Below the pieces are notes generated by a model. It saw only the letters and a program-made list of their open reading frames with translations. It did no database searches and was not told the DNA's origin. From an uncultured virus (IMG/VR IMGVR_UViG_3300032116_000047) (lineage: Duplodnaviria; Heunggongvirae; Uroviricota; Caudoviricetes), in the IMG/VR virus record IMGVR_UViG_3300032116_000047: a stretch of 64,000 nucleotides of DNA, one strand, 5' to 3'. Made by a program: the position numbers and the translations under genes. The number at the start of each line of letters is the position of its first letter. The first letter of the stretch is position 1. Positions 16,435 to 18,772 of this stretch are shown piece by piece.

Positions 16435-16521
16435 CGGAGAACAGAGGAATTGAACCCCATACCAATGTACAGTACAACTCGCTTAGCAGGCGGTCCTAAT
16501 CACCAGATTAGTTTATTCTCC
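16435..16521 (-). tRNA. tRNA-Ser (GCU)
   Basis: Loop CTGCTAA; long variable arm; G73. Confidence 0.85.
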
Positions 16522-16527
16522 TTTTTG

Positions 16528-16605
16528 CGGAAGAGTGAGGTATCGATCTCCATACCACGAAAGTACCACTAGTTTTAAGACTAGGTCAAGCTTAATTACT
16601 CTTCC
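16528..16605 (-). pseudogene. Degenerate tRNA-Ser, probably (UGA) with a 1-nt anticodon deletion
   Basis: Ser-type body (G73, long variable arm); ctagt-CTTAAA-actag 6-nt loop; reduced D-arm. Confidence 0.55.
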
Positions 16606-16611
16606 TTATTG

Positions 16612-16686
16612 TAGTTCCAGAGGGATTCAAACCCTCACATTTCTCGGTTCGTAGCCGAGTGTTTTGTTCAGTTAAACTATGGAACT
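16612..16686 (-). tRNA. tRNA-Arg (ACG)
   Basis: ctcgg-CTACGAA-ccgag. Confidence 0.85.
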
Positions 16687-16697
16687 ATATCAGTTTG

Positions 16698-16768
16698 CAC
16701 ACCTGCTTGGGCTCGAACCAAGAACACTGATTTTGGAGATCAGCATGATACCATTTCACCACAGATGT
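16698..16768 (-). tRNA. tRNA-Trp (CCA)
   Basis: ctgat-CTCCAAA-atcag; G73. Confidence 0.9.
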
Positions 16769-16775
16769 ATTTTAG

Positions 16776-16846
16776 CGCGGATGTAGAGATTCGAACTCTA
16801 ACGGTGAGGGGTTGGAATCCTACCGACTAAACCTACGCTCATCCGC
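16776..16846 (-). tRNA. Atypical tRNA, probably Trp (CCA)
   Basis: Acceptor gcggatg/catccgc, G73, TTCGAAT T-loop, loop TTCCAAC; weak D and anticodon stems. Confidence 0.5.
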
Positions 16847-16860
16847 GTGTTTATTTTTAG

Positions 16861-16932
16861 TGGAGACTGACAGAATCGAACTGACCTCTTCCGGGCTTCA
16901 ACCGGACGCTAAACCAACTTAGCTAAGTCTCC
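16861..16932 (-). tRNA. tRNA-Phe (GAA)
   Basis: tccgg-TTGAAGC-ccgga. Confidence 0.85.
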
Positions 16933-16936
16933 TTTG

Positions 16937-17011
16937 GGTGTTAGACGGGACTTGAACCCGCGACCTCTGGATTCACAATCCAGCACTCTCAACCATCTGA
17001 GCTACTAACAC
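16937..17011 (-). tRNA. tRNA-His (GUG), C73, no encoded G-1
   Basis: ctgga-TTGTGAA-tccag. Confidence 0.9.
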
Positions 17012-17013
17012 AG

Positions 17014-17086
17014 TGATCCCGGTGGGGTTCGAACCCACGACCCCCTCATTAAAAGTGAGGTGCTCTACCAACTGAGCTACGAAATC
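17014..17086 (-). tRNA. tRNA-Lys (UUU)
   Basis: cctca-CTTTTAA-tgagg. Confidence 0.9.
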
Positions 17087-17094
17087 ATATTTAG

Positions 17095-17167
17095 TGGACC
17101 CGGTGGGTTACGATCCCACTCTCCCTCCGTTAAAAGCGGAGTGCTTTCCCGATTAAGCTACGAGTCC
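17095..17167 (-). tRNA. tRNA-Lys (UUU), second divergent copy
   Basis: ctccg-CTTTTAA-cggag; T-loop ATCGTAA. Confidence 0.85.
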
Positions 17168-17175
17168 AAAATTTG

Positions 17176-17248
17176 TGGAACGGGTGGGTATAGAACCCAC
17201 TCCTCTGGATTTTCAGTCCAGCGCAATCACCTGATCTGCCACCATTCC
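17176..17248 (-). tRNA. tRNA-Phe (GAA), second divergent copy
   Basis: ctgga-CTGAAAA-tccag. Confidence 0.85.
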
Positions 17249-17258
17249 AAATTATTAT

Positions 17259-17295
17259 AAAACAAAAAAGTCCGAACTTTTTACGGTTCAGACTT
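17259..17295 (-). terminator. Intrinsic terminator (attenuator) upstream of tRNA array 4
   Basis: AAGTCTGAAC-cgtaaaaa-GTTCGGACTT followed by a U-tract. Confidence 0.85.
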
Positions 17296-17321
17296 CACAA
17301 GTATTTATAATCTATAAGTTA

Positions 17322-17423
17322 TTACACTTCTAAATTTGAGCAATACTCTTTTAGTACCGAACCAAAGTGACTAAACCACTTCGACGATCTACTAAAATGC
17401 TTATGTGTGCGAATTGCTCTCAT
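17322..17423 (-). CDS. Leader peptide of tRNA array 4 (33 aa, MRAIRTHKHFSRSSKWFSHFGSVLKEYCSNLEV)
   Basis: Codons 7-20 encode only H,K,F,S,R,W, the amino acids of the downstream array; 17353-17363 pairs with the terminator 5' arm. Confidence 0.85.
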   Translation of the reverse strand: MRAIRTHKHFSRSSKWFSHFGSVLKEYCSNLEV

Positions 17424-17480
17424 TGTTGTTATATATTGAATTGTTAAACTCTCTTTTTAATTATTTGTCATTATCTTATA

Positions 17481-17512
17481 CAAAATTAGTAAAATGTTTT
17501 AAATCTACCAAA
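17481..17512 (-). promoter_or_regulatory. Bacteroidota-type promoter TTTG-N20-TAATTTTG upstream of the array 4 leader
   Basis: Consensus match; region resembles 1222-1310. Confidence 0.7.
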
Positions 17513-18292: not shown

Positions 18293-18315
18293 TGTTTAAA
18301 ATTTTACAATTAAAT

Positions 18316-18464
18316 AAAGAGAGTTTTGGAACGCCTGTCAAGTATGGTCGAAACCCTAGAACCTTAAACTTAACTTTTAGTGACCTCATCACTTAGGATT
18401 GCCTTTTAATATGCTCATCGCCTCGGTTGAGCAGTGTTACCATTCTGCTCTTAAATCTCTCTTT
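18316..18464 (-). ncRNA. Putative structured RNA upstream of the yqeY-like gene
   Basis: GC-richer non-coding island closed by aaagagag/ctctcttt, with an internal hairpin gagcag...ctgctc. Confidence 0.4.
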
Positions 18465-18772
18465 GTGTTGTTTGTTTTTTCTAATAATTACAGATATATC
18501 CATCCAACACAAATTTACACATCTACACTCTTGTATATTATCATATAGTATATAATACAAGGTGGTTCACTGATTTTTAGTAAGAGTGTTAATTTATTTG
18601 TCAGCTACTTACCACCATAATTACACTAAGACTCACAAAATAAATTTACATATTCAGAGATTATTGAAGTTTTCACTTGTTTCATATCTGTATAGAAACT
18701 ATTGTCTTAATGTCTTTAACAAAACAAAGATATAAATAAGTTTTTAATAAACAAACTTTAATATATACAAAT

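Follow-up and report, generated by a model that had tools for sequence, protein, structure and literature searches.

Positions 17,259 to 17,512 of the window (the whole 64,000-nucleotide stretch of an uncultured virus analysed here, IMG/VR record IMGVR_UViG_3300032116_000047) very probably place a block of phage tRNA genes under a ribosome-coupled transcription attenuator of the trp/his/thr type, whose predicted output is tRNA for the codons that it senses. The sequence anatomy of the unit, the match between its leader codons and the genes behind it, its conservation and its computed pairings all point this way, and the attenuator reading of the initial annotation is well supported by the codon match, the mutually exclusive helices and the conservation. 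The features of the unit and of its array are as follows.

17481..17512, minus strand: host-type promoter, with TTTG (17512-17509), a 20-nt spacer and TAnnTTTG (17488-17481); the same block precedes another unit of the window, attenuator 1, and the orthologous units of the related genomes G002-G005
17430..17437, minus strand: AATATATA box 6 nt upstream of the ATG, a possible phage promoter or start signal that recurs across this genome
17322..17423, minus strand: leader ORF of 33 aa, MRAIRTHKHFSRSSKWFSHFGSVLKEYCSNLEV (ORF call; orthologous ORF in all 46 loci found by pattern)
17373..17405, minus strand: putative sensor codons 7-17 (H K H F S R S S K W F), with H, K, F and W as the core (folding model and conservation)
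17385..17397, minus strand: segment 1, the anti-antiterminator strand (codons 9-13), pairing with segment 2 (consensus helix, MFE)
17349..17363, minus strand: segment 2, the antiterminator strand GGTTCGGTACT (17363-17353) plus the bases closing helix 1:2; pairs with the terminator 5' arm
17259..17296, minus strand: intrinsic terminator, with segment 3 (17294-17285), loop, segment 4 (17278-17269) and a T run to 17259 (-13.0 kcal/mol)
17175..17248, minus strand: tRNA-Phe(GAA) (ARAGORN and Rfam)
17013..17167, minus strand: two tRNA-Lys(UUU), 17167-17094 and 17086-17013, with no Lys(CUU) here (ARAGORN and Rfam)
16936..17011, minus strand: tRNA-His(GUG) (ARAGORN and Rfam)
16860..16932, minus strand: tRNA-Phe(GAA), second copy (ARAGORN and Rfam)
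16697..16846, minus strand: two tRNA-Trp(CCA), 16846-16775 (relaxed threshold only) and 16768-16697 (ARAGORN)
16611..16686, minus strand: tRNA-Arg(ACG) (ARAGORN and Rfam)
16528..16605, minus strand: Ser(UGA) orthologue with a one-base anticodon-loop deletion (called by neither ARAGORN nor Rfam; orthologue comparison)
16436..16523, minus strand: tRNA-Ser(GCU) (ARAGORN, relaxed threshold only)

The window reads as part of a jumbo phage-like genome. Its proteins include SmpB, ClpP, an ECF-type sigma factor, NAD ligase, an S1 protein, YqeY, primase and SbcC, together with a virion structural match; its minus strand holds 21 tRNA genes in three clusters, and it contains four attenuator units, as against five to seven in each related genome region. 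Close relatives comprise viral contigs of 150-476 kb, as well as two phage records found by BLAST, 635 and 642 kb long, which we take to be genomes of the huge-phage paper. At least half of the window's words are present in each of 15 DNA runs labelled as lake, freshwater or fungus metagenome. The promoter is called host-type by reference to the Bacteroidota promoter consensus. This form, together with the prediction, in the available text of the huge-phage paper, that phage genomes larger than 634 kb infect Bacteroidetes (PMC7162821), suggests a Bacteroidota host.

The order Phe-Lys-Lys-His-Phe-Trp-Trp-Arg-Ser-Ser reported for the array is borne out, with the first Trp and the Ser-GCU gene needing a relaxed ARAGORN threshold, and within the array there is neither a second host-type promoter nor a AATATATA box. 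The assignment of leader TCG codons to a Ser-UGA gene does not survive: the gene at 16605-16528, although Ser-type in its body, has an anticodon loop of 6 nt from which the middle G is missing, and is probably non-functional as judged from its sequence. An intact 7-nt loop is present in eight of the ten rows that hold this arm, the exceptions being the window and L035. Contigs of two DNA runs span the deletion and are identical to the window there, which rules out an assembly error. We note that the leader has TCG at codons 13 and 14 although the Ser(UGA) orthologue carries this deletion.

Translation of the leader confirms that codons 7-20 specify exclusively His, Lys, Phe, Ser, Arg and Trp, a run of 14, as compared with a longest such run of 8 elsewhere in the 33 window proteins (16,092 residues), in which these six make up 27% of residues. 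By rule, the sensor window was taken to start at codon 2 and to stop four codons short of the strand that pairs best with the terminator arm; array amino acids occupy 13 of its 16 codons against an expected fraction of 0.27 (p about 1e-5). Scoring of leaders against arrays gives its own array as the best fit for every leader in the window and in G002-G005, and the true pairing ranks first of 24 permutations in the window (four units) and first of 120 in each of G002-G005 (five units each); these genomes are related, and the match is thus to be read as one strong result and not as five independent tests. The array sets behind these scores were corrected by hand, with a Cys replacing an ARAGORN Ser(act) call, doubtful calls dropped and an Ala(ggc) call kept in G005. 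The Gln/Pro/Asp leader of G002 is not significant under the sensor-window rule (4 of 14 matched, p 0.08).

The fit proposed between codons and anticodons holds for amino acids, at the 13 of 16 codons given above, and fails for anticodons. Of codons 7-20, two (TGG and CAC) pair in Watson-Crick fashion with an array anticodon, nine pair by wobble, and AGA and the two TCG codons are without an intact reader in the array; with 2 of 14 Watson-Crick matches, exact codon-anticodon tuning is rejected. The AGA at codon 12 does encode Arg but is not read by Arg-ACG; this codon is AAA in 30 of 31 distinct leaders, under a search pattern that permitted AAA or AGA alone. An Arg codon, CGC, lies at codon 5 just upstream of sensor codons 7-17. 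As to which of codons 7-20 act as sensors, we retain 7-17; codons 18-20 lie too near the antiterminator and are variable, positions 19-20 varying freely among distinct leaders, and they are unlikely sensors because the switch in the folding model lies at codon 17/18. Ser11 and Ser13 fall in helix 1:2, and since this helix includes codons 10-13, these two residues are in part structural.

Ribosome-mediated attenuators are described, in the available text of PMC1183508, as a leader ORF with regulatory codons, segments that form exclusive 1:2, 2:3 and 3:4 helices, and an intrinsic terminator. All of these elements are found here: a short upstream leader ORF whose stop lies 25 nt from the intrinsic terminator, codons cognate to the array at the amino-acid level, a terminator hairpin at 17296-17267 followed by a T run, mutually exclusive helices 1:2, 2:3 and 3:4 (by pairing and conservation), and, in the folding model of the partial transcript, a stall geometry that frees the antiterminator. 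The antiterminator duplex had been given as 10 bp with one G:U and one bulge, and GGTTCGGTACT at 17363-17353 pairs with the terminator 5' arm at 17294-17285 exactly in this manner; the best duplex, at -13.1 kcal/mol, is equalled by 26 of 2000 codon shuffles of the leader, and for every one of the four terminators in the window the best-pairing leader is its own. Segment 2 is conserved at the DNA level across two reading frames.

Conservation of the helices was assessed in 35 sequences, after removal of duplicates and of four rows without a terminator in range. Helix 1:2 has nine consensus pairs kept in 35 of 35 sequences with zero two-sided changes, its 5' side being fixed by the search pattern, and it is a candidate pause hairpin for coupling of ribosome and polymerase. 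Two pairs of the terminator, helix 3:4, show two-sided changes. The eight core pairs of helix 2:3 are 95.7% paired in the MAFFT alignment, with zero two-sided changes and with covariation not above shuffles; pair 70-157 is broken in eight of the 35 and pair 71-156 in four. The two outer pairs of helix 2:3 were split by MAFFT and therefore anchored by hand; they are paired in all 35, as GC in 29 and AU in 6 for one and as AU in 23, GC in 10 and GU in 2 for the other, and their covariation probably represents two or three events and not 35. In L066, segments 1, 2 and 3 are altered together, which supports the attenuator fold.

The consequences of ribosome position were modelled by masking 15 nt before to 12 nt after the A-site start with only the 5' arm of the terminator transcribed. 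In the window, pairing of 2:3 is then 0.83-1.0 for A-site codons 2-17, at most 0.1 for codons 18-32, and 0.61 and 0.89 at codons 33 and 34, with 0.15 for the untranslated leader; the model switch falls at codon 18-19 in five orthologues. The untranslated state differs in L034 and L025, where 2:3 forms at 0.97 and 0.96. A leak at the leader stop codon is possible in this model, and one is described for the trp attenuator in the available text of PMC1183508. When the full transcript is taken to equilibrium, the terminator prevails at almost all ribosome positions in five of five orthologues, and in the window at all except codons 12-14; the switch must therefore be kinetic.

From this architecture we infer a translated leader, a working switch and a definite order of folding. 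Transcription would begin upstream of the leader. Were codons 7-17 read fast, the ribosome would cover segment 2 while segment 3 is being made, the terminator would fold and the array would stay off; were the leader not translated at all, segment 1 would hold segment 2, with the same result. A ribosome waiting at a His, Lys, Phe or Trp codon, and perhaps at Ser or Arg, would leave segment 2 free to capture the terminator 5' arm, and polymerase would read on into the tRNA genes. The array tRNAs are thus probably made mainly when ribosomes read H/K/F/W/R/S codons slowly, and because the output is tRNA for the sensed codons, the arrangement would constitute a negative feedback loop on the supply of usable tRNA. 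Slow decoding of whatever origin would trip the switch, and the leader cannot discriminate between the causes; to make good a lack of usable tRNA, brought about by heavy phage demand or by host cleavage of tRNA, seems a likelier purpose than to answer amino-acid starvation, since extra tRNA would not cure starvation. One contig of 216 nt from an RNA library (17196-17396) spans the leader, the terminator and the first tRNA, a weak hint, as the contig may derive from DNA; the RNA runs X16 and X17 cover 0.14 and 0.09 of the window, mostly through tRNAs of other organisms, and are uninformative on level, strand and ends.

A pattern on codons 10-18, by which most of those codons are fixed by construction, identified 7 viral and 39 metagenome loci. 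An orthologous leader ORF is present in all 46, with the L047 copy lacking an ATG. Behind 43 of 47 rows, 301 of the 315 tRNA calls are Phe, Lys, Trp, His, Ser or Arg with common anticodons (ACG for Arg); several of the 14 others read as His by inspection, including four Leu or unassigned first genes with a His anticodon loop. A codon-blind search, using the letters of the antiterminator and terminator only, gave 33 viral loci. A tRNA lies within 400 nt at 11 of these, and all 11 carry a leader of the form H-K/S-x-F-S-K-S-x-x-W-F; five of them are new, with Ser18 replaced in every one, and the remaining 22 matches, without a nearby tRNA, were treated as chance. Among the matches listed in a scan of bacterial genomes (at least 120 loci, 80 with full flanks), one has a tRNA within 400 nt, and its leader is different.

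The most serious alternative, though an unlikely one, is that the switch is real but acts as a general sensor of translation speed, triggered by any slowing (antibiotics, shut-off or starvation), with the codon match historical or partly imposed by the helix. In its favour, the model frees segment 2 whichever of codons 2-17 the ribosome stalls at, Ser11 and Ser13 occupy helix 1:2, and in L066 the change of segment 2 is accompanied by Leu at codon 13. Leaders are also left untrimmed after loss of array genes: in L023 and L033 the genes that follow are His and Trp alone, yet the leader still has Lys and Phe codons, which speaks against tight tuning, and the nine loci in which a second leader serves the Arg/Ser genes retain two or three Ser codons in the first leader, to the same effect. 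This alternative does not explain why each of the four or five leaders per genome fits its own block and no other, nor the retention of His7, Lys8 and His9, none of them fixed by the pattern, in 30, 27 and 22 of 31 distinct leaders. It is also at odds with the separate Ser/Arg and Gln leaders found where blocks are split: the Arg and Ser genes have a second, Ser/Arg-rich leader and terminator in 9 of the 14 loci that reach Arg-ACG, the window being among the five without.

It is less probable still that a phage protein or RNA that binds the leader or modifies polymerase sets read-through, by N/Q-like or RNA-binding antitermination, which would make the short ORF incidental. Because the terminator wins at equilibrium, an additional factor might be required, and the genome does encode its own sigma factor and an S1-domain protein; but the leader bodies share no common sequence beyond the promoter, yet each has its own complementary antiterminator in an open frame, and the block-specific codon content would be left unexplained. 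Equally improbable is a fixed leaky terminator or processing hairpin that gives a constant low tRNA level, with leader and pairing vestigial or due to chance, for although one array gene is already broken in this strain and the core 2:3 pairs are without covariation, this is countered by a stretch of 14 array amino acids where the genome otherwise reaches no more than 8, by leaders that keep their frame, their start and the position of their stop in 46 loci even though one lineage has a frameshift, and by the presence of the unit in both the 635 and the 642 kb relatives.

On the origin of the unit, the initial annotation had proposed a duplicated cassette re-programmed to its own array on the strength of a likeness to attenuator 1. 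The likeness of the promoters is genuine, with 42 of 48 bases identical as compared with 32 of 48 for the next best of 13 promoter-like matches in the window, but it is limited to the promoter block (about 46 nt) and the start context, and re-programming of a duplicate is unsupported. Between the leader ORFs, similarity does not exceed that of shuffled sequences (94 of 1000 shuffles do equally well), and when leader and terminator are compared as one body, attenuator 1 (3 of 1000 shuffles) and attenuator 3 (4 of 500) come about equally close; a recent duplication of attenuator 1 thus finds no support in either comparison. Identity of the promoter block is 40 of 46 in the window and 46 of 46 for the same two units in G003, and the block is also common to the Gln/Pro/Asp unit in G005, while in G003 that unit matches at 25-29 of 46. 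Promoter swapping or homogenisation accounts for the likeness equally well. Since both units are separate orthologous families already in four related genomes, any duplication must be old, and the sequences are compatible with an ancient duplication of the attenuator 1 cassette, which is neither demonstrated nor excluded by them. Fast and exact re-tuning is argued against by L023 and L033, where the leader retains its Lys and Phe codons before His and Trp genes.

A scan for sigma-70 promoters gave 4 sites against 4.4 in shuffles, a model that is not informative for this promoter type. The AATATATA box occurs in 22 copies in the window, many of them 4-22 nt (often 4-6 or 18-22) before ORF starts, and is possibly a phage promoter giving near-leaderless transcripts.

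Attenuators with multivalent leaders are known, as in thrL and ilvGMEDA. Like these and the trpL, hisL and pheL systems, the phage unit has a leader ORF, four segments, exclusive helices and an intrinsic terminator; unlike the attenuators of amino-acid operons, it would regulate tRNAs instead of biosynthetic enzymes, and would sense four to six amino acids by scattered single codons and not by runs. The Rfam leader families (Trp, His, Thr, Leu and Phe) score below threshold, with Thr_leader at 15.3 bits against 55 and Trp_leader at 14.7 against 41. Another parallel is the pheST attenuator of E. coli with its pheM leader, the output of which is a synthetase protein and which responds to one amino acid; in both cases the gene product under attenuation belongs to the translation machinery and serves to provide the charged tRNA that is sensed, but in the phage the output would be the tRNA itself, and for several amino acids. 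In T-box riboswitches, some of which have been reported before tRNA genes, uncharged tRNA is bound directly and an ORF is not required. As in a T-box, tRNA status would choose between terminator and antiterminator; the phage unit differs in relying on an ORF, and Rfam finds tRNAs only in the window, with no T-box match there or at the leader.

Why phages carry tRNA genes is an old question, usually answered by codon usage or by rescue from tRNA cutting. A phage tRNA region reportedly overcomes the tRNA-cutting PARIS effector AriB (PMC12409363). The available text of PMC11555353 describes such rescue by tRNA-Tyr of T5 and SP15 against retron-Eco7 and by tRNA-Lys against PrrC, and reports that it depends on a strong promoter; the strings 'attenuat' and 'leader' are absent from its main text. 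The level of the tRNA array would matter for infection in these regions and here alike, but unlike the strong-promoter rescue tRNAs, the expression of the phage unit appears conditional on decoding speed. Huge phages have up to 67 tRNAs per genome, and the available main text of PMC7162821 describes no tRNA regulation ('attenuat' and 'leader' each occur 0 times); the unit described here is a feature of such arrays in that the two phage records of 635 and 642 kb have it. Our search of the literature outside subscription journals and supplements found, among the matches listed, no precedent for an attenuator on tRNA genes, and we regard this unit as trp-operon-style control applied to tRNA genes, a variant of established attenuation.

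Textbook attenuation would thereby be extended from biosynthetic enzymes to tRNA genes, with sensor and product forming a closed loop. A tRNA block that is on only when its codons are read slowly would make the genes a response to shortage, and the leader would report which tRNAs fail during infection, a direct assay; leaders of this type also offer short, codon-specific sensors for Bacteroidota. More tentatively, and with appreciable doubt, we suggest that the five to seven leader attenuators jointly cover the amino-acid set as a tRNA homeostat, each an OR gate for its own tRNA block, with stalled ribosomes switching on the block that replaces a tRNA depleted by host immunity or phage demand. 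The unit described here would then be the His/Lys/Phe/Trp channel of an inducible counter-defence that senses the damage itself.

The other three units of the window each precede their own tRNA block:

1221-1108, minus strand: R/N/V/I/C/T/L/M leader-terminator unit, 20 of 20 matched
6675-6604, minus strand: Tyr/Glu leader-terminator unit
5948-5868, minus strand: Ile(ATA)/Ala/Gly leader-terminator unit

A host-type promoter at 6530-6499 (minus strand), also present in L010 and L016, closely follows the Tyr/Glu terminator and might allow transcription to escape that attenuator. Two further tRNA-like features are seen nearby, a degenerate tRNA-like gene with an unclear anticodon at 6169-6093 (minus strand), between Glu and Tyr, where G003 has a Val-CAC call, and a short tRNA-like remnant after Gly at 5552-5495 (minus strand). 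Elsewhere, at 18310-18470 (minus strand), a non-coding stretch upstream of yqeY is closed by an 8-bp terminal helix; its folding z is -1.5, and it has no Rfam match.

Several observations concern related loci. A second Ser/Arg-rich leader and terminator precedes the Arg-Ser block at 3577-3710 in L011, at 12758-12890 in L015, and in L065, L066 and others; a Gln-rich leader precedes two Gln genes in L017, and a Gln pair in G005 has a Gln-rich leader. In the distant phage G001, L001 2514-2591 is a Phe/Val/Asp/Glu/Trp-rich leader before Phe, Trp, Gly, Val, Glu and Asp genes, a match seen by eye and not significant under the sensor-window rule (6/9, p 0.23). A conserved tRNA-like gene of 126-129 nt, whose D-arm region is enlarged by about 55 bases and whose loop is of the UGA type, is present at L005 11652-11780 and in eight more loci, that is, in 9 of 12 examined; it scores 45 bits with the Rfam tRNA model and is absent from the window array. 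The first array gene in L019, L020, L040, L042, L045 and L074 is tRNA-His(GUG)-like with a long extra D-arm hairpin, and such genes are often miscalled as Leu or Glu. ORFs or kilobase gaps break up the array behind the attenuator in L074, L050, L051, L054 and L019, and protein genes inside these interrupted arrays may share attenuator control. In L176, a record titled as a Chitinophagales MAG, positions 1900-513 (minus strand) hold a Bacteroidota-type promoter, a 30-aa mixed leader and terminator, then a second short ORF and terminator, and then eight called tRNA genes, a possible bacterial counterpart.
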